Positions 6,688-49,588 of a DNA stretch of 64,000 nucleotides are shown one piece after another. Source of the DNA: an uncultured Candidatus Saccharibacteria bacterium (GTDB lineage Bacteria; Patescibacteriota; Minisyncoccia; Phycocordibacterales; UBA5272); contig CAZNZQ010000003.1 in the NCBI GenBank assembly GCA_964577675.1, positions 3,330-67,329 on the forward strand, read 5' to 3'. Every line of letters starts with the position of its first letter. Position 1 is the first letter of the stretch. The translations under genes were made by a program, and so were the position numbers. A model generated the notes under the pieces. It worked only from the letters and a program-made list of their open reading frames with translations, made no database searches and was not told where the DNA came from.

Positions 6688-6727
6688 TAAGATGTATTTC
6701 CTTTTTTAATGGGCGTGATATAGTGGA

Positions 6728-7729: not shown

Positions 7730-7730
7730 T

Positions 7731-8573
7731 ATGAAAGTCTACATACTCGGAGCTAGTGGTTTTATGGGAGAGAAGTGTGCTGATTATTTTAAAAGCAAAG
7801 GCCATGAAGTATTTACTGAGCGGGTAGACATAACTGACGTCACAGCCTTAAGAAGCGCTTTTGAAAAGTCTTCGCCAGATGTTGTCATTAGCTTCGCAGG
7901 AGTTCGTGCGCACCCAACCATCGACTGGTGTGAAGATCATAAGGAAGAAACAGTGGCAGTGAATGTCGGAGGCGCTATTAATGTTGCTCTGATAGCGATA
8001 GAGAAGGGGATATATCCGATACAGATAGCAAGCGGTTGTATTTACTCTGGCGATGAACATAGAGCGTTCACCGAAGAAGATGAGCCTAACTTTACAGGAA
8101 GCTTCTACTCCCGCATGAGAATCGTCATGCAGAACGCTTTGAAGGAGCTCCCTGTGCTACAGGTTCGTATCAGAATGCCAATATCAATGTCAGCTCACCC
8201 AAGGAATCTTATTACAAAGATTGCTTCGTATAAGAAGGTGATATCAGTACTGAATTCCGTCACCCTGATAGAAGATATGTTTGTTGCTCTCGAAAAGCTT
8301 TGTGAGATGCGCCCAACTGGAATACTTAACCTCACTAACGATGGATATGTAACTCACAGCAATCTACTTTCTGTCTACAAGAAAATCGTCGACCCTACTC
8401 ATGAGTACGAACTAATTGATGTAAAAGAATTAGAAACAAAAGTAATAAAAGCTGGAAGAAGTAACTGTGTCCTCTCAAATATAAAAATGAAGTCACTCAG
8501 TATACAGATGCCAGCACTCGATGAAAAGAGACTGGCTGAGCTTTTGGAGCACTATAAAACGACACTACAATGA
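7731..8573 (+). CDS. dTDP-4-dehydro-6-deoxyhexose reductase (RmlD-like)
   Basis: ILGASGFMG N-terminus, 280 aa, translationally coupled between rmlB and rmlA; RmlD-family architecture. Confidence 0.65.
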   Translation: MKVYILGASGFMGEKCADYFKSKGHEVFTERVDITDVTALRSAFEKSSPDVVISFAGVRAHPTIDWCEDHKEETVAVNVGGAINVALIAIEKGIYPIQIASGCIYSGDEHRAFTEEDEPNFTGSFYSRMRIVMQNALKELPVLQVRIRMPISMSAHPRNLITKIASYKKVISVLNSVTLIEDMFVALEKLCEMRPTGILNLTNDGYVTHSNLLSVYKKIVDPTHEYELIDVKELETKVIKAGRSNCVLSNIKMKSLSIQMPALDEKRLAELLEHYKTTLQ

Positions 8574-10272: not shown

Positions 10273-11019
10273 CTAGTCTTTGTAGCTAAGATAAACATCA
10301 AACAGTCTTTCCACAAACTCGTTACCCTCGTGTGCTCCCACAGACTCAGTGTTCTTAAAATACATAATATGGTCGGCAAGGTCTTGAAGGGAGACTGTAT
10401 ATTTTTTGTTCATTCGATAAAAGCCTTCGTTATCTTGATCAAAGTAAGACGGATTTTTCCCAAGCACTATATCAATACAAGAGCTTATAAAGTCGTCAAC
10501 GTGCGCGAGAACTATTTCTTTTCCAGGGTCAGATATTTCTATTGGTTCGCCGTGTGCAATTTTGTGACAAAAAGTCGCGACTACTGAATGTGCGTTTGGC
10601 TTAGCCCATCTACCAAAAGTATTGGTGAGACGCACGATGTACACCTTGGCGCCGGCCTCTTTTTGGTAACCTAAGAGAGCTTCTTCTGCCCTTCTTTTAC
10701 TTACACCGAAGTCATTTTCTAGTACTGCGTGTATTGAAGAGGTGTAGAGGACGTGGGTTGCAAGCCCTTCTTCTTTTAGGAGGGTAACAATCTTTTCTGT
10801 AAGTTCACTATTACCTTTGTAGAACTCTTTCGGGTCCTGTGGTCGACTGATACCAGCTAGGTGGAATATGTAATCAGCTTTTTTTAGACTGTCACGTAAC
10901 TCTCCGTCTGTTATGTTTCGTGTCACAGTGAGTAGGTTAAAGGAAGGGTTTTCGGCGAGTCTGGCTATTAAGTTTTTACCGATAAACCCAGTGCCACCGG
11001 TGATGAGTATTGTTTTCAT
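10273..11019 (-). CDS. NAD-dependent sugar epimerase/reductase (short SDR-like, CapF/RmlD-like)
   Basis: ILITGGTGFIGKNL Rossmann motif; 248 aa. Confidence 0.6.
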   Translation of the reverse strand: MKTILITGGTGFIGKNLIARLAENPSFNLLTVTRNITDGELRDSLKKADYIFHLAGISRPQDPKEFYKGNSELTEKIVTLLKEEGLATHVLYTSSIHAVLENDFGVSKRRAEEALLGYQKEAGAKVYIVRLTNTFGRWAKPNAHSVVATFCHKIAHGEPIEISDPGKEIVLAHVDDFISSCIDIVLGKNPSYFDQDNEGFYRMNKKYTVSLQDLADHIMYFKNTESVGAHEGNEFVERLFDVYLSYKD

Positions 11020-11024
11020 ATAAT

Positions 11025-11855
11025 TTAGAGAGCTTGGATATTTTTATAAGCAAGGTCAAAGAATTGCCCTGCATCCCAAGCCGTGTAACCTTCTTCTGCT
11101 AGTTCGTAAACGAAAACTTTTGCAGCTGGCCCCATGGATACCATGACGAGCACCTCCTTCGGAGTGTAGTCGTTTTCCTTTACTAGTTCGCGGAATGCTG
11201 TGCGAATTTCTGCTATCTTGTCCCATCCGTCGCTCTTGGGCGCCTCTATGAGATGGGTAGTCTTCCCAAGTGAAATATCTTTAAAGCGTTCAAGGGAAGA
11301 GGTAATGATAACAACGTTCTTTTTCAAAAAGTAGTCTTTTAGTTTCTTGTAATCTATCCCTGTGTTAACAGCAGGGTAGAAGGCAAAAGAGCTACCATAG
11401 ACTCTACCTTTTTGTACGTACTTATGAAGGAGAACTTTGCTGTTAATCCAGTATTTGAATTCATCACCCTTACCAATCTTTTCTAGCTCTTCCCTTGTCT
11501 TTGTCAGATGGTCACCTGGGAGACAGATGATCATATTGGCTGACTTTGAGGACAGGATGCTTAGCAGTCCTTTCTGTAGACTTTTATTAAACTTTTGGCG
11601 CCAGTCGTTGAAGTAGACACTTGCTCCACGCATAAGACCGAATTCTCCGTCACCTAGTCGTACAATAGAGCTGTCGTTATCTATTATGTAATTAAATGTC
11701 TCCTCAGGGGAGAGGAAGTTCAGTCTTTTGTATAATGGGACATGTTTATCGGCTGCGAATTTATCATATAGGTTTCTTTTCAGGAAATAGAAAATTGCAC
11801 GAGGGTTATCAATAAACTTTTGCACACGACTTCCCCATACGCTTGCAGGCATCAT
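11025..11855 (-). CDS. Putative GT-D fold glycosyltransferase (DUF1792-like)
   Basis: RLGDGEFGLMRG motif resembling the DUF1792/GT-D metal-binding DxE region; from memory, not verified. Confidence 0.4.
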   Translation of the reverse strand: MMPASVWGSRVQKFIDNPRAIFYFLKRNLYDKFAADKHVPLYKRLNFLSPEETFNYIIDNDSSIVRLGDGEFGLMRGASVYFNDWRQKFNKSLQKGLLSILSSKSANMIICLPGDHLTKTREELEKIGKGDEFKYWINSKVLLHKYVQKGRVYGSSFAFYPAVNTGIDYKKLKDYFLKKNVVIITSSLERFKDISLGKTTHLIEAPKSDGWDKIAEIRTAFRELVKENDYTPKEVLVMVSMGPAAKVFVYELAEEGYTAWDAGQFFDLAYKNIQAL

Positions 11856-11926
11856 ATACCCTTCATTATAACAGATTTTTTAAGCGTGTTTTTGGCTAAG
11901 AAATAAGCTATAATTAAGCCACATTT

Positions 11927-12880
11927 ATGGAAAAAACTAATAAAAATAAAGTTATTTTCATTACCGGGGCTACTGGGTTTATTGGAAGAGCTCTCACAAA
12001 AAGGCTTCTTTCTAACGTTCAGGTCTCAAAACTTATCGTTCTTTCCCGCCATGATTCTTTTGAAGAGTACAAAGATAATGCCAGAGTAGTTCCTGTCCTA
12101 GGAGATGTTAATAATCTAAGCATGTTGGTTAGAACTCTTGAGGAGCATGATGTCACTCACATATATCATCTTGCGTCAGAGGCCATTGTGTCGACATATA
12201 CTAAGCACCCCCTCGAAGCGTATCTCTCTACTGTACAGGGTGTAACAACGCTACTTGAGGCAGCAAGAGTCGCTAAGATTAAATTAGAAAGAGTGTTAGT
12301 AGGAACGTCATACAAAGTCTACGGCAGCTCTACTCCACCTTATAATGAGTCAACTTGCTTCATGCCGGGGAACACATATGAGACCGCAAAAGCCTGCCAA
12401 GATTTTATTGCCCAAGATTACTACCGTACTTTCAAGGTACCTGTTATCATTTTTAGATCAGTGAATGTATACGGCCCAGGGGATAGTCATCTCACAAGAC
12501 TGGTTCCGAAGGTTTGTAGTGACCTCATCCATGACAGAACTCCAACCGTCTACTCATCTGTAAGAGATAGTCTTCGTGAGTTTATTTATATTGACGACTT
12601 GCTCGATGCTCTATCTGTCATTGAAGATAAAGGAGAAGCTGGTGATGTGTTCTGTATTGGAGGACACCGCGAAACAATTTATAATATTGTTGAAAAAATA
12701 TGTGAGATTGCTGAGCACAAAGAGAAGCCGCTTATTGCGAATGTCGATCGTGCTGCAGAAACAAAAGAGCACGCCCTTGATGACTCTAAGATAAAGAGCC
12801 TAGGGTGGGGGATGAAAGTTTCCTTTGAAGAAGGTTTAGAAAGGACGTTCCAGTTTTACAAGAGTAAACCGCTAGCCTAG
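11927..12880 (+). CDS. NAD-dependent epimerase/dehydratase family protein
   Basis: FITGATGFIGRAL Rossmann motif; YETAK (YxxxK); 317 aa. Confidence 0.7.
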   Translation: MEKTNKNKVIFITGATGFIGRALTKRLLSNVQVSKLIVLSRHDSFEEYKDNARVVPVLGDVNNLSMLVRTLEEHDVTHIYHLASEAIVSTYTKHPLEAYLSTVQGVTTLLEAARVAKIKLERVLVGTSYKVYGSSTPPYNESTCFMPGNTYETAKACQDFIAQDYYRTFKVPVIIFRSVNVYGPGDSHLTRLVPKVCSDLIHDRTPTVYSSVRDSLREFIYIDDLLDALSVIEDKGEAGDVFCIGGHRETIYNIVEKICEIAEHKEKPLIANVDRAAETKEHALDDSKIKSLGWGMKVSFEEGLERTFQFYKSKPLA

Positions 12881-29613: not shown

Positions 29614-29991
29614 CTATTTCTTAAAGATTTTCCTTACAATAACAAAAGCAACTATACCTACCACAGCCCATATGATTTCAAAGTAATCACTAGCAAATAC
29701 TTCTGGACCAAAGATAAGTCCAATAATAAAGAGGATTCCAAAAAAGAAGTATCGGTTAAGTACACTACCAAGCATTGCCCATCTTCCTGTAAGAATAAAG
29801 ACCAGTAATGCTACTCCAAGAAGACTTAAAAGAATTTCACCAACACCAACCCAATGAGCTTTTAGAAAGGTTATCAGTATGCCCCAAAGAATCTTGAAAG
29901 CATTTATAGTGCCTTCTTGAATTGCATTTAGCATCATAGTAACCATTTGTGCCGGAAAATCTACCCCTAGCGGTTGTGTTGTTGTTCCCAT
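29614..29991 (-). CDS. Hypothetical small membrane protein (3 TM)
   Basis: Hydrophobic segments; no motif. Confidence 0.35.
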   Translation of the reverse strand: MGTTTQPLGVDFPAQMVTMMLNAIQEGTINAFKILWGILITFLKAHWVGVGEILLSLLGVALLVFILTGRWAMLGSVLNRYFFFGILFIIGLIFGPEVFASDYFEIIWAVVGIVAFVIVRKIFKK

Positions 29992-30072
29992 CCTGCAATC
30001 CTATCAAAACTGTAGGAAAATAGGAATTATTTCCTTATAAAAGAAGTACTCACAAAATGCTATAATACTCTC

Positions 30073-31428
30073 ATGAAAAAACCAGGAATAGTATATATTT
30101 TAGGTGCTGGAGCAAGTGCAAATGCTCTTCCTGTTGTAAGTGAAATGATTGAAAGGTTGCAGATTTTTTATCTTACGCTTTTCATTTTAAGCATCTCTGA
30201 TAGTTTAGAGCCTGAAAATAGTGAACGAACGAAGAAGCTGATGAAAGAACTTAAAGATCTTCTTGGTAATTTGAAAAATAAAAGATCTATTGATACTTAT
30301 GCGAAGGAACTATATATCAAAAAAGACACAAATAAATTAGATATACTAAAAGCATTACTCGGCACATATCTTTCTTTTGAGGAGATGTTTTCTGACGATG
30401 AAATGAGATCTTTTTTTGAAACAAAGTTTCCTAATATCATAGATTCTGACGGTTTAAATGATGACAAGAGAAGTCCTGGAGTATTAAACTCACTTAACAC
30501 AGAAACAAAAAATAAACTTAAACAGCCAGGTAATTCTGGACCAGAATACATTGATGAGTTAAGTTGCTTAAGATATTTATACAGAAAGAATATATCAACT
30601 CAAAAATATCAAAATAATAAAACAAAGATCGACCAAAGATACATTAACTTTTTGATTGATGTTATGGAAGAAGTTGATTCATTTCCTTCTAATATTAAAT
30701 TCTTTTCATGGAATTATGATTCTCAATTTCTCCATGCAATAAAAAATTTAGAGTTTAAAATACCCGTCAAAGATGGGGTTATTGATTACCTTTTTTTGAA
30801 AAGACTAAATGGTGTTGCTGCAAGAAAAGGAATAAATCCTGCCACTATTAGTTCTGGATTAAAAATAGAAGACAAAATTATTGAAGCATCGGACTGTTTC
30901 TGGAGATTAAGCCATCCTGATAGTAGAGACGACAATCTGTTAGTTAAGTTTGCTTTCGAACAAGATCAAAATATAGAGAAACTGGAAGTCTCTTCTCACC
31001 TAGATGATTTTGATTCAGTATCTGACCTAGTTATTATTGGCTATTCTTTTCCATTATCAAATAGAAATATTGATAAAAATGTTTTTGAAGCAATTCTTAA
31101 GAAGGTTGAATATACGAGAGATAAAATAATTAACCTAAAAATTTATATACAAGTTCCACCTGATTCAGATGTAAATAACGATCAGTATATAATTACAAAA
31201 GCAAAAATTACGACAGTTGTTAATTCAATTATTCCTGAACTCGATTTATCAAGCGATGGGAATGAATTATCTCACACAAGAAAAGTCACTCCACAACCAT
31301 GGCCGGAGTCAGATGTTGTTGTTCCTGGGTACAATAAAGCTCCTAAAGACGAAATATTTGAAACACTGAAAATTAAATTTTACAGGCAGTGGGATCCTGT
31401 TAACTTCTATATACCACAATCCTTTTAG
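30073..31428 (+). CDS. SIR2-like (SIR2_2 family) domain protein, candidate NADase-type defence protein
   Basis: N-terminus IVYILGAGASANALP (GAGxS), FFSWNYDSQF (NYD), DLVIIGYSFPLS (GYS). These three motifs characterise the SIR2_2 fold (recollection). Unique ~150-aa C-terminal region. Confidence 0.5.
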   Translation: MKKPGIVYILGAGASANALPVVSEMIERLQIFYLTLFILSISDSLEPENSERTKKLMKELKDLLGNLKNKRSIDTYAKELYIKKDTNKLDILKALLGTYLSFEEMFSDDEMRSFFETKFPNIIDSDGLNDDKRSPGVLNSLNTETKNKLKQPGNSGPEYIDELSCLRYLYRKNISTQKYQNNKTKIDQRYINFLIDVMEEVDSFPSNIKFFSWNYDSQFLHAIKNLEFKIPVKDGVIDYLFLKRLNGVAARKGINPATISSGLKIEDKIIEASDCFWRLSHPDSRDDNLLVKFAFEQDQNIEKLEVSSHLDDFDSVSDLVIIGYSFPLSNRNIDKNVFEAILKKVEYTRDKIINLKIYIQVPPDSDVNNDQYIITKAKITTVVNSIIPELDLSSDGNELSHTRKVTPQPWPESDVVVPGYNKAPKDEIFETLKIKFYRQWDPVNFYIPQSF

Positions 31429-32681
31429 TTTCCGTCTTTTCCAACCTCCACTACTTTAATGTAGTTCATGATCTTATATTTCTCCACTTTCTTACGAAGA
31501 TCTGCATACTTGTACCATTCAGCAGATGTGTGCCAAGTCTTACCATCTTTTTCGTAACTATATCCTCTTGAGTTAGTGAACTTCTTTGGAGGTAAAAAGT
31601 CTTCATTATCTTTTATAAGAAAAACCTGTGCCCAAGTACCTTTACCATAATGGCTTATGGTTCGAGCTTTAAGTATTCCTTGTCTAATCCATTTCTGTAT
31701 CGTTGGGCTTTTTAGATTAAATCTATTTTGAATATCAAAACTTGAATACCAACTATCTCTGAATTTCATCAGTGATCCAGGTATCTCTTTTTTATCAATA
31801 GCTCTCTGACACACAAGACATTTAACACCCCACTTGTCATACCAAAAATCTCCATCTTGATTATATTGACCACAGAGTGAACAAGAAGATCCTCCGTGTC
31901 CTTCAACCGCAAAACCATTTGGTTCCTCTTTCAGTCTTTCTTGCTTCGCTTTTTCATCTTCTTGAAACTCCTTTGTAATCTTGGTTAAGCCTTCTAGACT
32001 CCATTTGGCATCTAGGTACTCTTTACCTTCTTCTTCGGTAAGGCAGTATTTATCTCTATCAGTGGCAAAATTCTCGTCATAGTTATCTTCTTTGTGTCGC
32101 CATGTGTAATCTTCAGATCTCTTATATTTACACTTAGCACATGAATATGTCGTAGTACTTACTTTACCATCATCTTTCATGGTAACTGCTAGTGGTTTAT
32201 CACAATGAGGACACAGGTCTGGTTTTGATCTCCATTCTTCACCATCAGAATAAAAAGCTCTACGAGGGAAACACTTATTTGGACACTCAAACATAAAGAG
32301 TATTCTGTCTTCTTTGTCTAAGTTAGACATTAGCTCTTTGAATATTGGAGTAAGTCTATTTCTGCAAGTAAGACATCTAACATTCTCCGGTGGTTCTGCC
32401 GATTCATACAGCTCATCTTTTTTCCTGTCAGCATCCATCCGTTCTTGAACAGTTTTGTCTCTATTTGCATACCGCTCTCCTTTCTCAAAATAGAGTTGCA
32501 TGTCATGGACCCATTTATTAACTTGCTTCGCTTCCTTCTTAGTTATCTTTTTATCTTTAAGAGCTTTTGGGTCAATATCATCGTCATAAGGTCTATCTAT
32601 TCTACGACAATGATCAACAGTAAATCGGTCATAGCGATCGAGGTATTCTTGTCTATCTTTAAGATAGAGGATTCTCTCCAT
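31425..32681 (-). CDS. Hypothetical multi-zinc-ribbon protein
   Basis: Six CxxC pairs (CLTC, CPNKC, CPHC, CAKC, CSLC, CLVC) and a W/Y-rich C-terminus. Last gene of the minus-strand operon, 26 nt after the 2TM gene. Confidence 0.4.
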   Translation of the reverse strand: MERILYLKDRQEYLDRYDRFTVDHCRRIDRPYDDDIDPKALKDKKITKKEAKQVNKWVHDMQLYFEKGERYANRDKTVQERMDADRKKDELYESAEPPENVRCLTCRNRLTPIFKELMSNLDKEDRILFMFECPNKCFPRRAFYSDGEEWRSKPDLCPHCDKPLAVTMKDDGKVSTTTYSCAKCKYKRSEDYTWRHKEDNYDENFATDRDKYCLTEEEGKEYLDAKWSLEGLTKITKEFQEDEKAKQERLKEEPNGFAVEGHGGSSCSLCGQYNQDGDFWYDKWGVKCLVCQRAIDKKEIPGSLMKFRDSWYSSFDIQNRFNLKSPTIQKWIRQGILKARTISHYGKGTWAQVFLIKDNEDFLPPKKFTNSRGYSYEKDGKTWHTSAEWYKYADLRKKVEKYKIMNYIKVVEVGKDGN

Positions 32682-32707
32682 AACATACTAATTATACTCT
32701 TCTAGTT

Positions 32708-33256
32708 TTATTTTGATAACTCTTTTTTTATTTCCTTAATCGTTTTAAAAGGTTTCTCATCTAAATACTTTGATATTACTACTTTTTGTAGGTGCTTAGC
32801 TTTATATTTTAAGAAGTCTGTGTCTGATATTAGTGGTGTATCGTCCATTATTCTTTTATAAGAATTCAACAATTCTATGCCTTTAGCAATTACAGTGGAT
32901 TCATCGATTTTTGAAATATCTTCTCCACAAAAAACTTTTGCTTCTCTGATCCAGCTACCCCAAGACTTTACTGCGATACTTCTTTCTAGAATCTTTAAAT
33001 CAAAGTTTAATATTGCAGGCACAATACTTGCGATAAAAACACTCGCTGAAAATAAACCTAGGTAAAATGTCTGTACTGGGTTTAGTGAAGAAAAAATAAA
33101 CATCGAAGAAATAGCTGACCCTATTCCTACATACAGTAAGAATATTTTATTAGTCAAAACTATTCTATCTTTAATATTATTTTGTATACTTCTTGTCTGC
33201 TCTGCTTTCCTACAAAGACTTATAATTTCTTGGTGTGTATTATTTTTTGATTCCAT
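32708..33256 (-). CDS. 2TM membrane protein, candidate pore-forming effector (SLATT-like)
   Basis: Two adjacent hydrophobic helices (ILLYVGIGSAISSMFIFSSL, FYLGLFSASVFIASIVPAIL) with soluble N- and C-termini; 1-nt gap to the upstream gene. Confidence 0.4.
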   Translation of the reverse strand: MESKNNTHQEIISLCRKAEQTRSIQNNIKDRIVLTNKIFLLYVGIGSAISSMFIFSSLNPVQTFYLGLFSASVFIASIVPAILNFDLKILERSIAVKSWGSWIREAKVFCGEDISKIDESTVIAKGIELLNSYKRIMDDTPLISDTDFLKYKAKHLQKVVISKYLDEKPFKTIKEIKKELSK

Positions 33257-33257
33257 A

Positions 33258-33731
33258 TTAGTTAAAGTCTAGTCTATCAACCCCCGCAGATTCATGAGTA
33301 TACATTCTTGATAACTCTTGAGATAAATGCGGGAATTCAACATTAGTGCTCGATGGACTCCAGATACTTTTAAGGTTTTCTGTCTGAAAAGAGTATCTTC
33401 TGTCCTCTGGTAGATTTATGTATTCTTTTGAGTACATTATAACCACACTTAATCCATGTCCTTCACCATCCTCCCAATCTATGCCGCCAGGTCGGTCATT
33501 GTGGACTCTATCCGTACTACCAAGTCTATACTTTTTAGCCTTCAAAGGTACTCCATTCACATCATGCATTATAAGTGAAATAGTTTCTGCGTAACCAAAA
33601 ACCATATACTTTTTTACGTCATGTAAAATCTCATAACAGTAATCAATTGTCCAAAGATCAGTTTTTCTTGCTGCAATTTTAAAATCTGTTGCAATACTTT
33701 TGTGAAGTTTATTTAGTTCAGTTTGTGTCAT
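33258..33731 (-). CDS. Hypothetical 157-aa protein, operonic between nucleotidyltransferase and 2TM protein
   Basis: ORF with 1-nt spacing on both sides; no recognised motif. Confidence 0.4.
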   Translation of the reverse strand: MTQTELNKLHKSIATDFKIAARKTDLWTIDYCYEILHDVKKYMVFGYAETISLIMHDVNGVPLKAKKYRLGSTDRVHNDRPGGIDWEDGEGHGLSVVIMYSKEYINLPEDRRYSFQTENLKSIWSPSSTNVEFPHLSQELSRMYTHESAGVDRLDFN

Positions 33732-33732
33732 A

Positions 33733-34719
33733 TTAGTTTTGGATTATGTCTATATTAAAATCTGAACCAAATATTTCCTTCCATAACTCAACCGTCGGCG
33801 TTAAGTACTCCTCCTCTTCAGCAAGCAAGAGTGTCTCAAAAGCAGTATCTGCTTTAATTCTTACAAGATTCCATTCAGTGTTAGAAACATTTTTAACAAT
33901 GTTGTTTTCTTCATGGGTTGGATCTGCAATATAGACATGACTTCCATCGTGTTGATATGTCCCGTATTTTGCGTTAAAAAGAAGAACAGGGAACTTTTTT
34001 TTACTTACAAGTCTAAAGAATCTTAAGATGGCTTCCTGTATATCAGGAACAACTCCTTTATTTATATCTAAATATGACACTATTAGCTCTATTGCAAAAG
34101 ATGACAGTTTAACATTCTGTACATTTCTCCATTTTTTTAAAATGCGGACTATTGTTGAATAGTTTACATTTTGTAATTTCCTATTCGCAATAAACTCTAA
34201 CTGTTTATCAGGAGATGTAAAATATATAGACCCATTCTCATCTGGTTGAGCTACATAATCTTCATCATTAGTTTTTCCAACGGGAACAATATCAACATTT
34301 AATCCAGATTCAACAAACTCCAATCCAGATGTTTTTGTGTTTGCCCAAAAGTCATCGTCACTTTTCTGATGATAGATACTTTTTAGTATCGGTAGTAGTA
34401 AGTCTTTTGTTTGATGAAGAGTCTCGTAACTGTCCGAGTCAATATTTAAAAAGAAAACTAAATCAATGTCTATAGGCACATCATCCTTTGGCTTTATCAT
34501 TGTACCTTTTTTCCATGAACCAGCCTGTAAAACTCTAAGTACTCTTGTATCAATATGTTCCCTTATTTTAGACTGAACAGAAGACACCAAGTAATCTATC
34601 TGATCTTGATGCCTCTTCTTCTCTTCCTTTGAGAATTTAATTCTATCTTTGTAATTTATTAGTTGTGCATTTGTTAAATTCATAAACCTAGTAAAGATCC
34701 GACGGAAGTATCGCAACAA
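33733..34719 (-). CDS. cGAS/DncV-like nucleotidyltransferase (SMODS / CD-NTase-like)
   Basis: AGSWKKGTMIKPKDDVPIDIDLVFF is the Pol-beta-type GS..GT...[DE]h[DE]h active-site pattern as in CD-NTases; third acidic residue in GLNVDIVPV; 328 aa; followed by a 2TM protein. Confidence 0.55.
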   Translation of the reverse strand: MLRYFRRIFTRFMNLTNAQLINYKDRIKFSKEEKKRHQDQIDYLVSSVQSKIREHIDTRVLRVLQAGSWKKGTMIKPKDDVPIDIDLVFFLNIDSDSYETLHQTKDLLLPILKSIYHQKSDDDFWANTKTSGLEFVESGLNVDIVPVGKTNDEDYVAQPDENGSIYFTSPDKQLEFIANRKLQNVNYSTIVRILKKWRNVQNVKLSSFAIELIVSYLDINKGVVPDIQEAILRFFRLVSKKKFPVLLFNAKYGTYQHDGSHVYIADPTHEENNIVKNVSNTEWNLVRIKADTAFETLLLAEEEEYLTPTVELWKEIFGSDFNIDIIQN

Positions 34720-35308
34720 CTACCCCTTGGATCGTGCAATTATTTGTTAATATGATTGGCTTATGGCTTTTGTCCTTGGACTTTGGTCGAAGAATAACAA
34801 CACCATTACCTTTCTCTAGAATCTTCACGGTTGCTTCATCATTGATAAGAGCAACTACTTTTTGTCCATCATCTGCTGTTTCTTGTTGTCGCACCAATAG
34901 TAAGTCACCATCATTAATTCCTGCATTATTCATTGATGTTCCTTTTGCACGAAGAATGAAATACTTTGAACCTGTCCTTGCTAGTGCAGTTGATACAGGT
35001 ATAAGTGTCTCAATATTTTCTTCTGCAAAAATAGGCATACCACACGCAACCGACCCTACTAGGGGAATGTTAATCGTGCTTATCGATTGTGTTGAATGAG
35101 TGCCTATAAGTTTCAATAACCTTCCTTCTTTCTTTATAACCTTTGCTTTAATTAAGCGGTTGATCAAAAGACTTGCTGAACGAGGAGACGAATCACCAGT
35201 TACTTTATTTATTTCAACTAGAGTTGGACTCTTCCCATAATGGATAATCTTGTTGCGGATAAGAGCAAAAGCTTTCTTGTCTTTGTCACTAAGGTTATTT
35301 GGTATCAT
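34688..35308 (-). CDS. lexA: LexA-type repressor (winged HTH + S24 peptidase)
   Basis: N-terminal LexA-like wHTH; GSVACGMP; LRAKGTSMNNAGINDGDLLLV (Ser nucleophile); ATVKIL (Lys). Its 3' end overlaps the nucleotidyltransferase ORF by 32 nt. Confidence 0.75.
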   Translation of the reverse strand: MIPNNLSDKDKKAFALIRNKIIHYGKSPTLVEINKVTGDSSPRSASLLINRLIKAKVIKKEGRLLKLIGTHSTQSISTINIPLVGSVACGMPIFAEENIETLIPVSTALARTGSKYFILRAKGTSMNNAGINDGDLLLVRQQETADDGQKVVALINDEATVKILEKGNGVVILRPKSKDKSHKPIILTNNCTIQGVVVAILPSDLY

Positions 35309-36180: not shown

Positions 36181-37449
36181 ATGCAAAAATTAGTTTGGAA
36201 AGCAGAAGTAAGGAAAGTTGAAGATTTGGTGATTTGGGATCAAAATCCGAGATCTATAAGCACAGCAAGATTTTCAAAGCTGATTAAGAGAATTAAGGAT
36301 CGTGGTTTTCATAGTTCAATTGTTATTGATACAGATAATACTATTTTATCTGGTAACCAAAGGAAGGAAGCGTTACTTCATCTTGGTATCAAAGAGGTTA
36401 ATGTATTAGTACCTAATCGTAAACTTACCACTGATGAAAGAAATAAAATTGCGCTCGAAAGTAACTTGAACGATGGTGAATGGAATTTTGAAGCATTAAA
36501 GTTATTTGAACTGGATACACTACTGGACATTGGTTTCGATCAAATCGAACTCTCTAAGTTCTGGGATGAAGACAAAGATATTAAAGAAGATACATTTGAT
36601 GTTGAGAAAGAGTTAAAGAAAATTATTAACCCTGTTACAAAACTTGGTGATGTAATTTATCTTGGTAATCATAAGATTATTTGTGGAGACTCTACAAAAA
36701 AAGAAACACTCACAAAGTTATTCAAAGGAGAGAAAGCATCGATGATTTATAGTGACCCTGTCTATAACATTTCTGTGAACTACTCAGGTGGAATTGGGGG
36801 CAAAAAAGACTATGGAGGTAACGTAAATGACACTCGTACTTTTGAAGAGTACAAAACATTTATCAGTGATAGTTTGAAAAGTGCGTTATTTGTATCACAC
36901 GACAATACACACTGCTTTTATTATTGCGATCAGATATTTATCGGACTAATTCAAGAAGTGTATAGGTCTCTCGGAATAAATAACAAGCGTGTATGCCTAT
37001 GGCTAAAAAACTCACAAAATCCAGTCCCTAAGGTGTTCTGCAATAAAGCGTACGAACCTGCAGTATACGGAACTCGTGGAAGACCGTACCTTGCAAATAA
37101 TGTAACAGACCTTAATGAAGTAATGAACAAAGAATTTACTACAGGCAATGATCTCATTTCTCAAGTTGATGACTTCCTTGAAATATGGACAGCAAAACGT
37201 CTTGCTTCTAAAGATTATCAACATGCAACTTCTAAACCAATCACCTTACACGAAAAAGCAATCAAACGCTGTACAAAACCTAATGACATTATTCTCGATA
37301 GTTTCCTAGGCTCAGGTAGCACTCTCCTTGCAGGAGAACAGCTCGGGCGAAGAGTGTATGGGTGTGAGCTAGAGCCAAAATTCTGTGACTTAATTGTGAA
37401 GCGTTATGAGGTACTTACAGGTAAGAAACCGATCTATGAAAAAGAATAA
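36181..37449 (+). CDS. ParB-like nuclease domain fused to N6-adenine/N4-cytosine DNA methyltransferase (phage-type)
   Basis: N-terminal ParB/Srx-like domain (ILSGNQRKEAL). C-terminal MTase motif IV IYSDPVYN (DPPY variant) and motif I DSFLGSGSTLLAGEQLGRRVYGCELEP. Confidence 0.7.
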   Translation: MQKLVWKAEVRKVEDLVIWDQNPRSISTARFSKLIKRIKDRGFHSSIVIDTDNTILSGNQRKEALLHLGIKEVNVLVPNRKLTTDERNKIALESNLNDGEWNFEALKLFELDTLLDIGFDQIELSKFWDEDKDIKEDTFDVEKELKKIINPVTKLGDVIYLGNHKIICGDSTKKETLTKLFKGEKASMIYSDPVYNISVNYSGGIGGKKDYGGNVNDTRTFEEYKTFISDSLKSALFVSHDNTHCFYYCDQIFIGLIQEVYRSLGINNKRVCLWLKNSQNPVPKVFCNKAYEPAVYGTRGRPYLANNVTDLNEVMNKEFTTGNDLISQVDDFLEIWTAKRLASKDYQHATSKPITLHEKAIKRCTKPNDIILDSFLGSGSTLLAGEQLGRRVYGCELEPKFCDLIVKRYEVLTGKKPIYEKE

Positions 37450-37837
37450 AATTCAAGATCAATTCCTAGAAGAGCTTGCGAAAGTGCCAATAGTACAAAT
37501 TGCTTGTGAAAAGTGTAGTTTATCTCGCAATAGTATCTATCGTTGGAGAAAAGAAGATAAAGTGTTTGAAAAGAAAATGGATGAAGCATTATCAAGTGGT
37601 GTTGCTTTTGTGAATGATATGAGTGAATCACAATTACTTACCCTTATCAAAGAGAAGAGTTACTCAGCTATCTCTTTTTGGCTTCGTCATAGAAATGATA
37701 ACTACAAAGATAAAATTGAAATTACTACAAAAGAAGAAAGTGGGGAACTTTCTCCTTCTCAAGCAAAAATTGTAAGACATGCCCTTAAGTTAGCTTCAAT
37801 TACAAAACAGAAATCTATTAGAAAAATTAATAAATAA
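37436..37837 (+). CDS. Putative phage terminase small subunit (HTH)
   Basis: 134 aa with an HTH-like CSLSRNSIYRWRKED, immediately upstream of terL; start chosen at the internal Met (ORF 37406..37837). Confidence 0.45.
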   Translation: MKKNKIQDQFLEELAKVPIVQIACEKCSLSRNSIYRWRKEDKVFEKKMDEALSSGVAFVNDMSESQLLTLIKEKSYSAISFWLRHRNDNYKDKIEITTKEESGELSPSQAKIVRHALKLASITKQKSIRKINK

Positions 37838-37842
37838 CAAGT

Positions 37843-39345
37843 ATGAAATACAACAGCATTGATAAGGGATTATTAAACAAAATGATGAAAGACAAATTAG
37901 TAAGAACGACTATCACTAAAGATAGTTTCTTCTACTTCTTTCATTTCTATTACGCTCACTATGTAAAGTACGAGACGGCAGACTTTCAAAAAGAGATTAT
38001 ACATCTTCTTGAGAAAGGAAATAACGAGAACCTATATGTTGTCGCTTTTCGTGGATCAGGTAAATCAACTATGGCGACAACAGCTTACCCAATATGGGCG
38101 ATACTTGGTAAACAGCAGAAGAAGTTTTGTATCATCTTTTGTCACACACGAATACAAGCAAAACAACATATGATGAATATTAAACAAGAACTAGAGAATA
38201 ATGATTTACTCAAGAAAGATCTCGGACCATTTCAAGAGGAATCTGATGAGTGGGGTTCATATTCTTTGGTGTTCAAAAAACACGGTGCTCGAATTTCTGT
38301 TGCCTCAACCGAACAAAGTATTCGTGGTATTCGTCATAACGAACATCGTCCAGATTTAATAATTTGTGACGATGTGGAAGATGTACAATCGGCTAAAACA
38401 AGGGAAGGTAGAAACAAGACATACAACTGGTTACGAGGTGAGGTAATCCCAACAGGAGACAGAAATACACGGCTTATCCTTATCGGTAACTTGCTTCATG
38501 AAGACTCTCTCCTAATGAGGATTAAAGAAGAGATTAAGAACGGTAAAGCAAAAGGCACTTTTAAGCAGTACCCACTTCTTGATCAAGATAATAACTGTCT
38601 ATGGACTGGGAAGTATCCGACAGAAAAAGATATAGAAGATGAGAAATTAAAAGTGGCTAGTGAAATATCGTGGCAACGAGAGTATCTTCTTCGTATTATA
38701 CCAAGCGATGATCAAGTTATTTATCCTGAATGGATAAAGTTCTACGATGAACTGCACCCCACTTCTCATAAAGCGTACCGTGGTACATATGCAGGTGTTG
38801 ACCTTGCAATATCTACTAGTGACGCCGCTGACTTCACTTCCGTTGTTATGGCTCGTGTATATGGTAGAAGAGATAAATTGCGAATCTATATCCTTCCTAA
38901 TCCTATAAACAAGAAGTTAAACTTTCCTGCTCAGGTTGATCTATTAAAAGATATTAAGAATACTCAAATGCCAAAATCAACAGATAATTTATTTGTTGAA
39001 AGTGTTGCATATCAAGAAGCTCTTCCTCAGATGCTAGAAATGCAAGGAATTAAAGCAGAAGCAATAAAACCTAAAGGAGACAAAAGAACAAGACTTGCAC
39101 TTACTTCTACTTCTATTAAATCAGCGATTGTTAAATTTCCACGACATGGATGTGAAGAATTGATTGAGCAACTGGTAGGTTTTGGTGTAGAAAAACATGA
39201 CGACCTTGCTGATGCTTTTTCTCTGCTTGTTAATACAACACTAGATAAGCATGCAAAAGAAGGAACTATTATTATGGCTTGGATTGGTCCTGGAACAGGT
39301 AGTGACGATATTATTCGTCACTCTGATTATGTAGATGTAGGATAA
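37843..39345 (+). CDS. terL: Phage terminase large subunit (Terminase_6-like)
   Basis: Walker A VVAFRGSGKST, ATPase N-domain, C-terminal RNaseH-like nuclease with acidic residues (DDLADAF); 500 aa. Confidence 0.7.
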   Translation: MKYNSIDKGLLNKMMKDKLVRTTITKDSFFYFFHFYYAHYVKYETADFQKEIIHLLEKGNNENLYVVAFRGSGKSTMATTAYPIWAILGKQQKKFCIIFCHTRIQAKQHMMNIKQELENNDLLKKDLGPFQEESDEWGSYSLVFKKHGARISVASTEQSIRGIRHNEHRPDLIICDDVEDVQSAKTREGRNKTYNWLRGEVIPTGDRNTRLILIGNLLHEDSLLMRIKEEIKNGKAKGTFKQYPLLDQDNNCLWTGKYPTEKDIEDEKLKVASEISWQREYLLRIIPSDDQVIYPEWIKFYDELHPTSHKAYRGTYAGVDLAISTSDAADFTSVVMARVYGRRDKLRIYILPNPINKKLNFPAQVDLLKDIKNTQMPKSTDNLFVESVAYQEALPQMLEMQGIKAEAIKPKGDKRTRLALTSTSIKSAIVKFPRHGCEELIEQLVGFGVEKHDDLADAFSLLVNTTLDKHAKEGTIIMAWIGPGTGSDDIIRHSDYVDVG

Positions 39346-39870: not shown

Positions 39871-41208
39871 TTAGATACAAGTATTCGGTATATGTAATGA
39901 TATTCTTTTATTTGATAACAGTATTTTAGAATTAAGACACTTAAAAAATTCTCTCTTCTCCTCCATTTCTCCCTCTAACAAAATAAACTTAGCATAGTTA
40001 CGAATATCAATATCTTTTACAGATATTGGTGTTTTGTTTCCTAGTAACATATATTGAAACTTTTTGAATCTTTTGACCTCATTAGTTATCTTTTCTTTCA
40101 TTGGCACTATCTGAATATCAAGATCATCAATAAGATCTTTAAGTTGATCTACTAAATCCTCCTCATTAAGAAACCCACAAGGACAATTCTGGTCTCTTGT
40201 TCTCGTGCACTTGTAATAGACGTATCTGTGAACATTACCATTTTGTTGATGTTTAAATTTCTCATCTGCTGTGATACCTGAACCACATAATCCACATGTC
40301 ATTATTCTTGTAAAAGCGAATTCCTTTTGTTCGGTTTTAGGTTCTAATATTTGACTCTTAATTTTCTCTTGAACTAAATCAAAGAGTTCTTTTGTGATAA
40401 TTGGAATGTGTGATCCGTTATACCAATTTCCTGAGTTTTTAGGGAATTCAAACCTTCCGTAATAAAAATGGTTTTGTAGTAATCGATAAAAGTTACCTAA
40501 ACTTAAATGGATATTGTTCTCAGTCTTAAAATCTTTATCATCTTTAAGCCAAGTCCACACCTTTCTACCTGACCATCCGTCATACCCAACTTTTTCAAAC
40601 ATCTCTTTAATAATAGGTGCTCTATCTTTGTCTATAATGGATTCGCATTTCTGATCCATTCTTTTAAACTTGGTATATCCAGTAGGAGGACGACATGGCC
40701 ATAAACCCATCTCTACTCTTGCCCTTAGACCTCTTTTAACATTGATACTTTTGTTATCATTCTCTAACTTTGCTTGAGAACAAAGAATCATAAGTAAAAA
40801 CTTTTCATTAGGAGAATTAGAAAATGTTTGTCCGTATGTTTGTATATGGATTAATTTTCTTTGATCCATTAAATCTACTAAACTTCCTAAATCTCCAGCA
40901 TTACGACTTAATCTATCTGGTGCCCAAGTTAATACTCCATTAAACTTTCCTTGATCTATATCTTGTAACAGCTGTTTATACACTGGTCGCTGACCTGAAG
41001 CTTTAGCACTATGTGATTCTCTTTTAACTTCCACTACATACAACCCTAAACGCTCTGCTATGGCTTCCATTTCTTTAATCTGTGAATCTATCGACAAAGC
41101 TTGCATTTCATCTGATTCAGTAGATTTTCTAGCATATAAACAATATTTAACTCTTACTTCTGACAAAACTATGTTTCCATGAATCTTTCCAATTGTTCTT
41201 GTTTCCAT
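39871..41208 (-). CDS. Large serine recombinase (resolvase/integrase family) with C-terminal zinc ribbon
   Basis: CLYARKSTESDEMQALSIDSQ (catalytic Ser), WAPDRLSRN, recombinase domain, C-terminal CGLCGS...CPCG zinc ribbon; 445 aa. Confidence 0.8.
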   Translation of the reverse strand: METRTIGKIHGNIVLSEVRVKYCLYARKSTESDEMQALSIDSQIKEMEAIAERLGLYVVEVKRESHSAKASGQRPVYKQLLQDIDQGKFNGVLTWAPDRLSRNAGDLGSLVDLMDQRKLIHIQTYGQTFSNSPNEKFLLMILCSQAKLENDNKSINVKRGLRARVEMGLWPCRPPTGYTKFKRMDQKCESIIDKDRAPIIKEMFEKVGYDGWSGRKVWTWLKDDKDFKTENNIHLSLGNFYRLLQNHFYYGRFEFPKNSGNWYNGSHIPIITKELFDLVQEKIKSQILEPKTEQKEFAFTRIMTCGLCGSGITADEKFKHQQNGNVHRYVYYKCTRTRDQNCPCGFLNEEDLVDQLKDLIDDLDIQIVPMKEKITNEVKRFKKFQYMLLGNKTPISVKDIDIRNYAKFILLEGEMEEKREFFKCLNSKILLSNKRISLHIPNTCI

Positions 41209-41555
41209 ATTATATTAATGACAGAGATCACTAGTCTTGCTAAGTCTATGCAGAACTAAAAAAGACGACATTATGAGATTAGGAAGTTACCTACAAAAAC
41301 ACCTTAGCAAAAGACCTTTTATGCGATATAATCAATAGATTAATACAAGAGTATTAAGACGGAACAATTTGCAGTAGCCTAAACCATTGGTTTCCAATGG
41401 CATGGTGAATTAAGTCTAATCAAAGCCAAAAAACCCATCATGTGGGATTTGCTTTGATTAGCCATACCTGGAAACGGGTATGGAGGTCGCAAGACCTCAC
41501 TCACGTGGTGGGCTTTTTGCTTTCCATAAGAGTTTTACCCAAATATAAAAACTTT

Positions 41556-42422
41556 ATGAATATTTTAAAAAAGATACTTTACGGTATAGGAGGGTTATGT
41601 ACATTATTTGTTATTACAGCACTCATCGTTCCGACTCCTAAAAAAGAGGAATCAGTTGCAATTGTAACAACAGCGACAACGACTAAAGAAAAAGAAGTAG
41701 TAGCTACTACAACTAAACCAGTTGTACTTGATAAAAAAGTAGCAGTAACTCAAGCAGTAGTTACAGTTCCAAAAACTGATTCTCAATATACTTATTATTC
41801 TATTACTGATGTCGTAGATGGCGACACAGTTAAGATAAATATTAATGGCACAATCGAAACTTTACGTCTAATTGGTTTAGATACTCCTGAAACTGTTGAT
41901 CCAAGAAAGGAGGTCCAGTGTTTTGGTAAAGAAGCTTCTAATAAAGGAAAGGAGTTACTTACTGGTAAAAAGGTAAGACTTGAAAAAGACACTACTCAAG
42001 GAGAAAAGGATAAGTACGGAAGAACGCTAGCGTATATCTATACTGAAAGTGGAATCTTTTATAACAAGTATATGATCGAACAAGGATATGCTCATGAGTA
42101 TACATATAACTCTGCGTATAAGTATCAAGCAGAATTTAAACAAGCTGAGAAAACTGCTGAAGCAAACAAAGTAGGACTTTGGTCACCAAGTACTTGTAAT
42201 GGCGTTACAACATCAGCACCTAAAACAACTCAAACGACCACATCTACTACTCAAGTCTCTGGGAAATACTACACTTCTTCTGCTTCTAATGCCACAAGAT
42301 ACTACCCTGATACATGCCCAGCGTGGCAAGATCTTTCAAAGTCTAATTTGAGGACATTCAACTCACTTGATGAATTGCTCGCTGTGTATCCTAAGAGAAC
42401 TATTGCTGATAGTTGTAAGTAA
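41556..42422 (+). CDS. Membrane-anchored thermonuclease (SNase-family) with Thr-rich linker and C-terminal extension
   Basis: VVDGDTVKI...LRLIGLDTPET...GRTLAYIY SNase motifs; N-terminal TM; probable start at the internal Met (ORF 41442..42422). Confidence 0.7.
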   Translation: MNILKKILYGIGGLCTLFVITALIVPTPKKEESVAIVTTATTTKEKEVVATTTKPVVLDKKVAVTQAVVTVPKTDSQYTYYSITDVVDGDTVKININGTIETLRLIGLDTPETVDPRKEVQCFGKEASNKGKELLTGKKVRLEKDTTQGEKDKYGRTLAYIYTESGIFYNKYMIEQGYAHEYTYNSAYKYQAEFKQAEKTAEANKVGLWSPSTCNGVTTSAPKTTQTTTSTTQVSGKYYTSSASNATRYYPDTCPAWQDLSKSNLRTFNSLDELLAVYPKRTIADSCK

Positions 42423-47598: not shown

Positions 47599-48678
47599 AT
47601 GACAACACCAACAAAACCAATTCTTCATAATGGATTTAAAGTACAAAATGATATTGTAGTTAAAAGTAGAATTGAACGTATATTCTTCACTGAAGTGTAT
47701 CTACTTTCTAATGAGAAGTTTTTATATATTTTTACTAATCTTAATCCAGAAGAAATTGTAGATCGAGGAGAGAAATATAATTTAATTACTATTGATATAG
47801 TTGGTAAAAGATACTTAGGTGTAATGACTGATAGTCATTCTAATGAAAATATTAGCGATATAGTAGACGATCTTACAGTACTACGTGGACTTGATTGTGT
47901 TGCAGGTATGAAGCCTCTTAAGGATTTACTCTTTAACGAGGTAATCGGTCCTTTGCTTAACCCAGAAAAGTATCAAAAGTTTAAAGTTGGAATACCAAAC
48001 GGAATACTTCTTTTTGGTCCTCCTGGATGCGGTAAGACGTTCATTGTTAAAAAATTAGCTGAGGAACTTGGCTATAATTTTATTGAAATGGCACCATCAT
48101 CTGTTGCTACTTCCTATGTACATGGAGCGGTTGGTAATATAGGTAAAGTCTTTGAGATGGCAAGACTTCAAGCACCGTCAATAGTTTTTATCGATGAAAT
48201 AGAAGGACTTGTTCCAAAAAGAGAAGACCTTGGGTCTCATGCTGATACTAAAAAGGAGGAGATAAATGAATTTCTTATTCAACTAAATAATGCAGGTCAA
48301 AATAAAATCTTAGTAGTTGGGGCAACGAACAGACCACATATGATTGACACGGCCATACTTCGTGCAGGAAGAATGGATAAAAGAGTGTATGTTGGTGCAC
48401 CAGACTTTGAAGCAAGAAGAGATATGTTTAAAATATGTCTCTCGGGTCGTCCGTACGATAAGAATATTGATTTTGAGAAGCTTTCCCACATGTCAGAGAA
48501 CTATGTTGGCTCAGACATCGAACTAATCGTTACAGAGGCTTCTAGGGCAGCTATAACTCAAGACAAGAATATGGTTGATGAGGAAATGCTGGTTAATGCA
48601 ATTAAGAAGTTTAATCCTTCAATCACATCTGAAGAAATTAAATACTATACACAGTTCTCTGATCTAGAAAGATCATAA
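47599..48678 (+). CDS. AAA+ ATPase (classic AAA family) with unique N-terminal domain
   Basis: Walker A LLFGPPGCGKTF, Walker B IVFIDEIE, SRH ATNRPHMIDTAILRAGRMDKRVYVGAPD. Confidence 0.75.
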   Translation: MTTPTKPILHNGFKVQNDIVVKSRIERIFFTEVYLLSNEKFLYIFTNLNPEEIVDRGEKYNLITIDIVGKRYLGVMTDSHSNENISDIVDDLTVLRGLDCVAGMKPLKDLLFNEVIGPLLNPEKYQKFKVGIPNGILLFGPPGCGKTFIVKKLAEELGYNFIEMAPSSVATSYVHGAVGNIGKVFEMARLQAPSIVFIDEIEGLVPKREDLGSHADTKKEEINEFLIQLNNAGQNKILVVGATNRPHMIDTAILRAGRMDKRVYVGAPDFEARRDMFKICLSGRPYDKNIDFEKLSHMSENYVGSDIELIVTEASRAAITQDKNMVDEEMLVNAIKKFNPSITSEEIKYYTQFSDLERS

Positions 48679-49030: not shown

Positions 49031-49438
49031 ATGTACAGTTATTTACGCAAACGCTTCTTAATGAATGGAAATGAATATAAGTTCTATAAAAAGTTAGACT
49101 CAGCTGTTGGTCTTGAATATAAAATATTACCACAAGTGCATTTTGATGAACTAGTAACTCCAACTAAAGTTTCAGGAGACCGTATTTTTTCTTTTCGACA
49201 CATAAACCAAAAATCAGTTGATTTTGTAGTGTGTAATAAAACCACTTTAGTCCCGCTAGTAGCTATTGAACTTGATGGAAAATCACACTTAAAACAAATG
49301 ACAAAAGACAGGGATGTGGAAGTTGAAAGAATACTAAAAGAGGTAAATTTACCCTTACTTCGTTTTGATAACAATAATGATATGGATATCGTTGGAATTA
49401 GAGAAATAATAAACAAGACCGTATCTTTAAAAGTCTAG
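49031..49438 (+). CDS. DUF2726-like (PD-(D/E)xK nuclease-fold) protein
   Basis: VDFVVCNKTTLVPLVAIELDGKSH, an ExD...K restriction-endonuclease-like core typical of DUF2726. Confidence 0.5.
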   Translation: MYSYLRKRFLMNGNEYKFYKKLDSAVGLEYKILPQVHFDELVTPTKVSGDRIFSFRHINQKSVDFVVCNKTTLVPLVAIELDGKSHLKQMTKDRDVEVERILKEVNLPLLRFDNNNDMDIVGIREIINKTVSLKV

Positions 49439-49514: not shown

Positions 49515-49588
49515 GGTGACCCCACGGAGAGTCGAACTCCGCTTACCGGCATGAAAAGCCGATGTCCTAACCGATAGACGATGGGGCC
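49515..49588 (-). tRNA. tRNA-Glu (anticodon UUC)
   Basis: Reverse complement folds as a cloverleaf: acceptor GGCCCCA/TGGGGTC, D-arm GTC..GAC, anticodon stem TCGGC/GCCGG with loop TTTTCAT (UUC), T-arm GGAG-TTCGACT-CTCC; CCA not fully encoded. Confidence 0.8.

Follow-up and report, generated by a model that had tools for sequence, protein, structure and literature searches.

A stand-alone SIR2-superfamily protein with asparagine at the likely catalytic-histidine position in a Candidatus Saccharibacteria genome

Results

A member of a large uncharacterised SIR2-superfamily clade

The subject of this analysis is a gene at positions 30073-31428 of a 64,000-nucleotide stretch of DNA (hereafter the window) from an uncultured Candidatus Saccharibacteria bacterium (GenBank assembly GCA_964577675.1, contig CAZNZQ010000003.1, positions 3,330 to 67,329 of the forward strand). 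Its product, hereafter the target, is a SIR2-superfamily protein that stands alone and belongs to a large, uncharacterised clade; in structure it is nearest to the immune-type SIR2 of SIR2-HerA. The nicotinamide adenine dinucleotide (NAD)-binding motifs of SIR2 proteins are kept in this clade, and an asparagine likely takes the position of the catalytic histidine. Among the immune effectors that target NAD+, SIR2-domain proteins form a major class that extends from bacteria to humans, and to our knowledge every characterised immune SIR2 effector depends on an Asn/His pair. We favour, with moderate confidence, the reading that the gene is mobile, has its own promoter and encodes a SIR2 variant that binds NAD and works by His-independent chemistry, and that it serves as an accessory conflict gene.

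30073..31428, plus strand: stand-alone SIR2-superfamily protein of 451 amino acids (aa), member of a His-less (Asn246) family; open reading frame and AlphaFold model

The open reading frame starts with ATG and ends with a TAG stop codon at 31426-31428. Against four homologs of 75-95% identity, the ratio of non-synonymous to synonymous substitution rates (dN/dS) was 0.08-0.19. The family profile retrieved 3,067 cluster representatives (clustered at 50% identity) at E<=1e-3 and 1,888 at E<=1e-30; the best 150 of the 3,067 are all single-domain proteins of 325-451 aa. On the strength of the dN/dS values and the number of clusters we conclude that the gene is real, and it is under purifying selection. 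An earlier reading of the window, made by a model from the letters alone (the sequence-only reading), had reported this reading frame with its GAGAS, NYD and GYS motifs; all are present, and the motifs are (near-)invariant across 187 family members.

The fold is that of SIR2

Profile libraries recognised little in the target itself. No Pfam family matched it at E<=0.1, SIR2_2 (PF13289) included, and NCBIfam and PHROGs gave no match; the SIR2_2 label of the sequence-only reading did not survive this search. Among the relatives, 8 of 41 matched SIR2_2 (best E 0.0013), in each case below the Pfam gathering score of 24.5 bits. PADLOC returned for the target one marginal match to Aga_SIR2, covering 28 residues (E 0.0015), whereas the relatives were recognised more clearly: 21 of 64 matched the SIR2 model PDLC04084 (best 5.2e-10), 12 matched Aga_SIR2 (5.2e-7) and 10 matched PDLC04089 (1.2e-8). 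SIR2 models made up 11 of the 18 PADLOC models matched by these 64 proteins. The search against defence models that the sequence-only reading had proposed was therefore positive for the family and close to negative for the target.

The AlphaFold model of the target is of good quality (predicted local distance difference test score, pLDDT, 87.9; predicted template modelling score, pTM, 0.87). In a Foldseek search of this model against the PDB, the top five matches came from SPARSA SIR2-APAZ, SIR2-HerA, PsSIR2 and FAM118B. These matches were weak (E 0.016-0.28, template modelling (TM) score below 0.4), because the target carries lineage-specific insertions. In place of the insertion-bearing target we modelled a compact relative of 339 aa, P0031 (pLDDT 90.4, pTM 0.90). 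All 50 of its 50 PDB matches listed belonged to the SIR2 superfamily. The best was 8sub_E, the SIR2 subunit of E. coli SIR2-HerA (E=4.4e-7, probability 1.00, TM score 0.47-0.49), followed by Sirt2, Sir2Af, CobB and then ThsA (6lhx, 2.6e-3). No match was found among viral structures (BFVD).

The SIR2 motifs also stand in the target in their canonical order for NAD binding, GAGxS, xNxD and GxS. Searches with the profile A3 and with the core-only profile A6 against PDB sequences gave no matches, and a homology search with a 54-aa fragment of KomC gave one 94-aa fragment only. The modelled structures make the SIR2 fold assignment for the family secure, and together with the PADLOC matches of the relatives they uphold the SIR2-like identity proposed from the sequence.

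The probable histidine position is occupied by asparagine

The following elements make up the predicted NAD-binding and catalytic site:

30103..30117, plus strand: G11-A-G-A-S15, loop that follows strand 1 and binds the NAD pyrophosphate; conserved in 184-185 of the 185 members that have a residue at this site, aligned to GAGVS of KomC
30712..30726, plus strand: N214-Y-D216-x-Q218, equivalent of SIR2 'TTNYD', holding the catalytic Asn; N, Y and D in 187 of 187 members
30808..30813, plus strand: N246-G247, likely site of the catalytic His in SIR2 'hHG', with His replaced by Asn; Asn in 186 of 186 members, His in none
31039..31074, plus strand: G323-Y-S-F-P-x-x-N330-R-x-x-D334, SIR2 'GYS' NAD-binding motif followed by a family-specific NRxxD; from the family alignment

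The register of N246 was taken from three independent alignments, each of which is statistically weak singly. The sole PDB-sequence match of the family profile was KomC(H146N) (PDB 9xvc, E 0.0087); here NYD aligned with NYD, and the LNG of the family with the mutated FNG of KomC. Two hhalign comparisons were made with SIR2 proteins from loci that also hold a family member. Against the ThsA of locus L079 (SIR2_2 4.8e-29, STALD 1.9e-48), SWNYD aligned with TTNYD and KLNG with KMHG. Against the SIR2_2 protein of locus L031, SWNYD again aligned with TTNYD, and KLNG with KLHG. As the three alignments agree, and as the motif spacing and the position at the end of a strand in the models fit, N246 likely occupies the catalytic-His position of SIR2 enzymes. 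The alignment check suggested by the sequence-only reading thus came out divided: the catalytic Asn is in place (N214 in 187 of 187 members), and the His is not (Asn246 in 186 of 186).

Mutating the catalytic His abolishes the activity of KomC (PMC13454610), and likewise that of ThsA and FAM118B (bioRxiv 10.1101/2024.09.18.613514). Since the residue is invariantly Asn in the family and His mutants of these three proteins are inactive, a ThsA-like NADase mechanism cannot be assumed for the target. We therefore do not share the expectation of the sequence-only reading that the protein depletes NAD+ in the manner of ThsA or DSR; the absence of a Pfam SIR2_2 match points the same way.

It would nonetheless be wrong to pass over a canonical NAD+-depleting effector of abortive infection, of the ThsA, DSR or SIR2-HerA type, triggered by phage infection. 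Its attraction lies in a fold nearest to SIR2-HerA, in relatives that match PADLOC SIR2 models, in the retained catalytic Asn and NAD-binding motifs, and in some neighbours of defence-island type. The complete lack of the His on which KomC, ThsA and FAM118B depend weighs against such an effector, as do the lack of a sensor domain and of a partner gene, and a target that matches no PADLOC system model beyond the 28 marginal residues. On balance we regard it as unlikely.

The features of the NAD pocket are kept: the motifs GAGxS, xNxD and GxS, and a terminal amide residue that follows the final core strand. Beyond these, a long series of residues is (near-)invariant in the 187 members: Y8, G11-S15, P20, D74, D187, R189, Y190 and W213 in the first half of the protein and up to the NYD motif; N214, Y215, D216, Q218, N246, G247 and E296 in the middle; and G323-P327, N330, R331, D334, Q360, F445 and P448 towards the C-terminus. 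Because so many other polar residues are invariant and purifying selection is strong, the alignment speaks for a rebuilt rather than a decayed active site.

An inactive SIR2-fold pseudo-enzyme has to be weighed against this, a protein that binds NAD+ or a nucleotide signal and works as a sensor, regulator, scaffold or sponge. Asn for His is the very substitution that traps SIR2 proteins in a substrate-bound inactive state (KomC H146N in 9xvc; Sir2 H80N with ADP-ribose in 1m2j), and the NAD-binding motifs are intact. However, invariant acidic, basic and amide residues in such number, kept over more than 3,000 clusters, go beyond the usual needs of binding. A regulator would also want a partner gene to regulate, and none accompanies the family; a role as an anti-defence sponge sits badly with the absence of the family from sequenced phages. 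A pseudo-enzyme is in our judgement improbable, to about the same degree as the canonical NADase.

Under the favoured reading, a NAD-binding variant with His-independent chemistry, the target would bind NAD+ or a NAD-derived nucleotide and would displace nicotinamide without a histidine base. The chemistry may be of the SirTM kind, with ADP-ribose transferred to a target, or an unusual cleavage of NAD+, and the gene would act in conflict or defence as an accessory. SirTM provides the precedent, as an ADP-ribosyltransferase in which Gln137 stands in place of His and works with Arg192 (PMC4518038).

A bolder form of this proposal is possible, and we advance it only tentatively. The target may be the founding example of a widespread and unannotated class of single-gene His-to-Asn SIR2 enzymes, which would have put NAD+ to a new use, either ADP-ribosylating a phage or host target or making a NAD-derived product. 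The class would provide self-contained immunity, in a cassette of ~1.4 kb that reaches even the reduced genomes of Patescibacteria.

The C-terminus belongs to the core fold

The sequence-only reading had taken the last ~150 aa for a unique, possibly sensory, C-terminal region. This does not hold: residues 300-451 form part of the core fold and carry the family-wide motifs GYSFP, NRxID, IYIQ and a terminal FxIP. Within this region only an insertion of ~50 aa is lineage-specific. The typical length in the family is ~340 aa, and the surplus of the target is made up of two such insertions:

30385..30627, plus strand: helical insertion, ~aa 105-185, in the cap that separates GAGAS from NYD; occupancy is low among distant members, with model helices spanning H108-169
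31225..31377, plus strand: ~50-aa insertion, ~aa 385-435, in the last beta-hairpin; occupancy 0.02-0.43 in distant members

In the second insertion the pLDDT of the model dips to 62-72. Its residues 401-420 are hypervariable, with 26% identity among close homologs against 70-85% elsewhere in the protein, and they are missing from the rest of the family. Candidate surfaces for recognition of a target or a trigger are the helical cap, which is variable, and the hypervariable stretch at aa 401-420.

Distribution and neighbourhoods of the family

A genome scan found the family in at least 313 loci, most of them in Bacteroidota (Chitinophagaceae, Saprospiraceae and others), with scattered loci in Alphaproteobacteria, Paceibacterota, Syntrophus, Leptospiraceae and Halioglobus. 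In tblastn searches of phage and plasmid collections there was no match. Across 76 loci no conserved partner gene was observed, and the largest cluster of neighbours covered 5 loci. Close relatives moreover lie in differing contexts; the suggestion that the gene is an independent single-gene unit is supported by these observations.

Among the 146 immediate neighbours, we counted Phage_integrase in five, Cro/C1-type helix-turn-helix (HTH) proteins in four, N6_Mtase in three, DEAD/ResIII in three and TIR_2 in two. Within two genes on either side there were MmeI/Eco57I methyltransferases, type I S subunits (Methylase_S), YhcG nucleases and integrases, along with numerous housekeeping genes. Two loci hold a canonical SIR2 gene close by. 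In L079, a metagenome-assembled genome (MAG) of Syntrophorhabdus, a complete ThsA (SIR2_2 plus STALD; 10537-12006, minus strand) lies 2.7 kb from the family member, and in L031, a Saprospiraceae MAG, a His-containing SIR2_2 protein (6514-7851, plus strand) lies 2.4 kb away. Canonical and His-less SIR2 genes therefore share islands. Taken as raw counts, the neighbours are suggestive of a mobile or defence flavour for the family. Our literature search found no paper on His-less anti-phage SIR2 proteins.

We also considered a housekeeping role, that is, a metabolic NAD-dependent enzyme or a protein-modifying sirtuin unrelated to conflict. The classical sirtuins Sirt2, CobB and Sir2Af among the fold matches would fit it, as would the many housekeeping neighbours. 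Nevertheless, the taxonomy is patchy, the gene stands out by a foreign GC content in each of the hosts examined, close relatives lie in differing contexts, SIR2 proteins of immune type head the structural matches, and the deacylase His is missing. Such a role is very improbable.

The gene travels as a short cassette with its own predicted promoter

Ahead of the target ATG we observed an extended -10 element and no Shine-Dalgarno sequence:

30058..30066, plus strand: extended -10 promoter element TGCTATAAT, ending 6 nucleotides before the ATG

All five loci compared retain the box TGnTAT[A/G]AT with its spacing, although three of them have otherwise unrelated flanks. This conservation suggests that the target has its own promoter and is expressed from a leaderless or near-leaderless mRNA.

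Nucleotide similarity to the loci L001, L003 and L087 is limited to ~30017/30036..31431/31440, that is, to the open reading frame with ~40 nucleotides upstream and 5-12 nucleotides downstream. None of the flanking window proteins tested had a match in L001 or L003, and there was no synteny of the window flanks with these two loci at the DNA or protein level. In all hosts examined the gene has a foreign base composition, with 29-31% guanine plus cytosine (GC) against 35-43% in the host flanks. What travels is a cassette of ~1.4 kb consisting of the predicted promoter and the reading frame.

The GC profile of the window bears out that the target opens a low-GC island. The block extends from ~30.0 to 49.5 kb, with a GC fraction of 0.31-0.38 against 0.40-0.47 outside; the target, its first gene, has 30.8% GC against ~43% in the flanks. 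The right end is marked by tRNA-Glu (49515-49588, minus strand) and tRNA-Val.

Upstream of the target and divergent from it lies a gene for a 125-aa multi-pass membrane protein (29614-29991, minus strand). It accompanies the target in the closest strains, L085 and L086, but L001 and L003 gave no match to it. With L086 the similarity ends at ~29540, which may be the left edge of the shared segment.

The neighbouring CBASS operon is swappable cargo

Downstream, the target converges on minus-strand genes. The operon that the sequence-only reading had called CBASS-like (cyclic-oligonucleotide-based anti-phage signalling system) is a genuine CBASS, with a cyclase, a HORMA gene and a two-transmembrane (2TM) effector:

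31425..32681, minus strand: 418-aa Zn-ribbon/HTH gene, terminal backbone gene of a Patescibacteria mobile element; outside the SIR2 finding
32708-33256, minus strand: 2TM effector of the CBASS operon
33258-33731, minus strand: HORMA gene of the CBASS operon
33733-34719, minus strand: CBASS cyclase (PDLC00808, 1.9e-74)
34688-35308, minus strand: LexA-like S24-peptidase repressor, overlapping the CBASS operon just upstream

The repressor suggests that CBASS expression is controlled by the SOS response or by cleavage. There is no TRIP13 gene adjacent to the operon; the sole TRIP13-like AAA gene lies 13 kb off, at 47599-48678.

The coordinates agree with the reported convergence: the TAA stop codon of the Zn-ribbon gene (31425-31427, minus strand) gives a 4-nucleotide overlap with the target. 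The sequence-only reading had considered a functional link to the neighbouring system. The target might, for example, serve the CBASS operon or the Zn-ribbon gene as a second effector or a regulator. Apart from the overlap itself, such coupling could draw on the common low-GC island and on the presence of the target and Zn-ribbon pair in L085 and L086. The wider comparison speaks otherwise. Homologs of the target at 88% (L001), 86% (L003) and 75% (L087) identity adjoin unrelated genes, and neither CBASS nor the Zn-ribbon gene is present there. In L085, where the homolog is 95% identical, the window is matched continuously from 29786 to 32682, up to the Zn-ribbon start codon; beyond it the entire CBASS cassette gives way to a T5orf172 gene, and the match picks up again in the ParB-methyltransferase gene. 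The family of the 418-aa Zn-ribbon protein (166 matches at ~50% identity) is conserved in Patescibacteria, and elsewhere, as in L089 and L091, this gene ends blocks with other cargo and no SIR2-like gene. The family of the target shows no conserved neighbour in 76 genomes, the operon already has its 2TM effector, and Pfam detected no SAVED or STING-type domain in the target that could sense a cyclic nucleotide. Coupling is thus hardly credible.

As the Zn-ribbon family is found elsewhere without a SIR2-like gene, the overlap reflects a mobile element abutting the target and not an operon partnership. We also rejected the Zn-ribbon protein as a CBASS component or a SIR2 partner, given the exchange of CBASS in L085 and the other cargo in L089 and L091. 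These comparisons show that the position of the target beside CBASS is incidental, and that a mobile element with swappable cargo lies directly downstream of it.

The mobile block bounded by the Zn-ribbon/HTH gene also has a ParB-N6/N4 methyltransferase, and the defence cargo between the two is swappable. It is CBASS in the window, T5orf172 in L085, an OLD-TOPRIM ATPase with a UvrD helicase (Gabija-like) in L089, and an Hsp70-like/AAA module with Mrr in L091.

Other features of the low-GC island

The segment 36181-41208 encodes a ParB-methyltransferase fusion, both terminase subunits, small and large (37406-39345), and a large serine recombinase (39871-41208), whereas neither capsid nor tail genes were identified. 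It has the look of a prophage remnant or of an element resembling a satellite. This segment is followed by a gene for a secreted or membrane-anchored SNase-family nuclease (41442-42422, plus strand; PADLOC C3a212 'SNc+LTD', 1e-46).

The segment 42487-48678 (plus strand) encodes a GrpE-like protein (weak match), an 837-aa Hsp70-like protein (PF00012, 2.9e-75), a 486-aa protein without a Pfam match, a 198-aa protein and an AAA ATPase (PADLOC IetA 1e-34, TRIP13 1.5e-14). The order of this Hsp70-like/AAA module recurs in a Nomurabacteria genome (L091, 1-4061), where the Zn-ribbon gene and an Mrr nuclease adjoin it. We regard it as a possible defence or mobile-element module of an uncharacterised kind. 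A DUF2726/DUF559 nuclease-like protein (49031-49438, plus strand) lies just ahead of tRNA-Glu.

Discussion

The family described here is large and conserved, and it has no Pfam or NCBIfam model; its relatives give PADLOC matches to SIR2 models only at the sub-system level. It keeps a NAD pocket together with the Asn of a 'dead mutant', and it would represent either a second catalytic solution within the SIR2 fold, for which SirTM is the sole precedent, or a class of NAD-binding pseudo-enzymes. Either outcome marks a gap in the annotation of defence systems. For the window, it means that the SIR2-like gene is independent of CBASS, and that CBASS is swappable cargo of a Patescibacteria mobile element.

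Comparison with known systems

With the SIR2 subunit of SIR2-HerA (Nezha; PDB 8sub, 8uae, 8su9) the target shares the SIR2 Rossmann core, the helical cap and the absence of a zinc module. It differs from that system in having no HerA in the window and no conserved partner in the 76 loci, in the Asn that stands for the His of the dyad, and in a sequence identity of only 12-18%.

ThsA and KomC resemble the target in the motif order GAGxS ... (T/S)xNYD ... h[H/N]G ... GYS, with 32-47 residues from the Asn to the His position. The Asn-His spacing is ~38-40 residues in ThsA and KomC. Both need their catalytic His (H152 in ThsA, H146 in KomC), where the target has Asn. ThsA carries a SLOG/STALD or Macro sensor and works with the TIR protein ThsB, whereas the target is single-domain and TIR_2 occurs in just 2 of the 146 neighbours of its family. 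KomC, unlike the target, works with KomA and KomB.

DSR1 and DSR2 are proteins of ~1,000 aa. The target, with 451 aa and a C-terminus that belongs to the core fold, lacks their large C-terminal sensor region.

The human proteins FAM118B and FAM118A (PDB 9r3e; PMC12700824) are, like the target, single-domain non-canonical SIR2 proteins of immune type, and FAM118B is among the top five fold matches of its model. However, the Asn/His pair is present in FAM118B, whose NADase activity is lost on either substitution, N163A or H206A; the protein is also vertebrate-specific and filament-forming.

A mechanistic analogy can be drawn with SirTM, a class M sirtuin (PMC4518038), in which an amide side chain replaces the His, the water-coordinating Asn is kept and an Arg is conserved, and which carries out ADP-ribosylation in place of deacylation; the target family likewise has Asn at the probable His site and the invariant R189 and R331. 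SirTM differs in being a classical sirtuin whose operon also encodes a macrodomain protein, GcvH-L and LplA2, none of which lies near members of the target family. Its amide residue is Gln and not Asn, and we found no sequence or closest-fold relationship between the two, so that the analogy is one of mechanism only.

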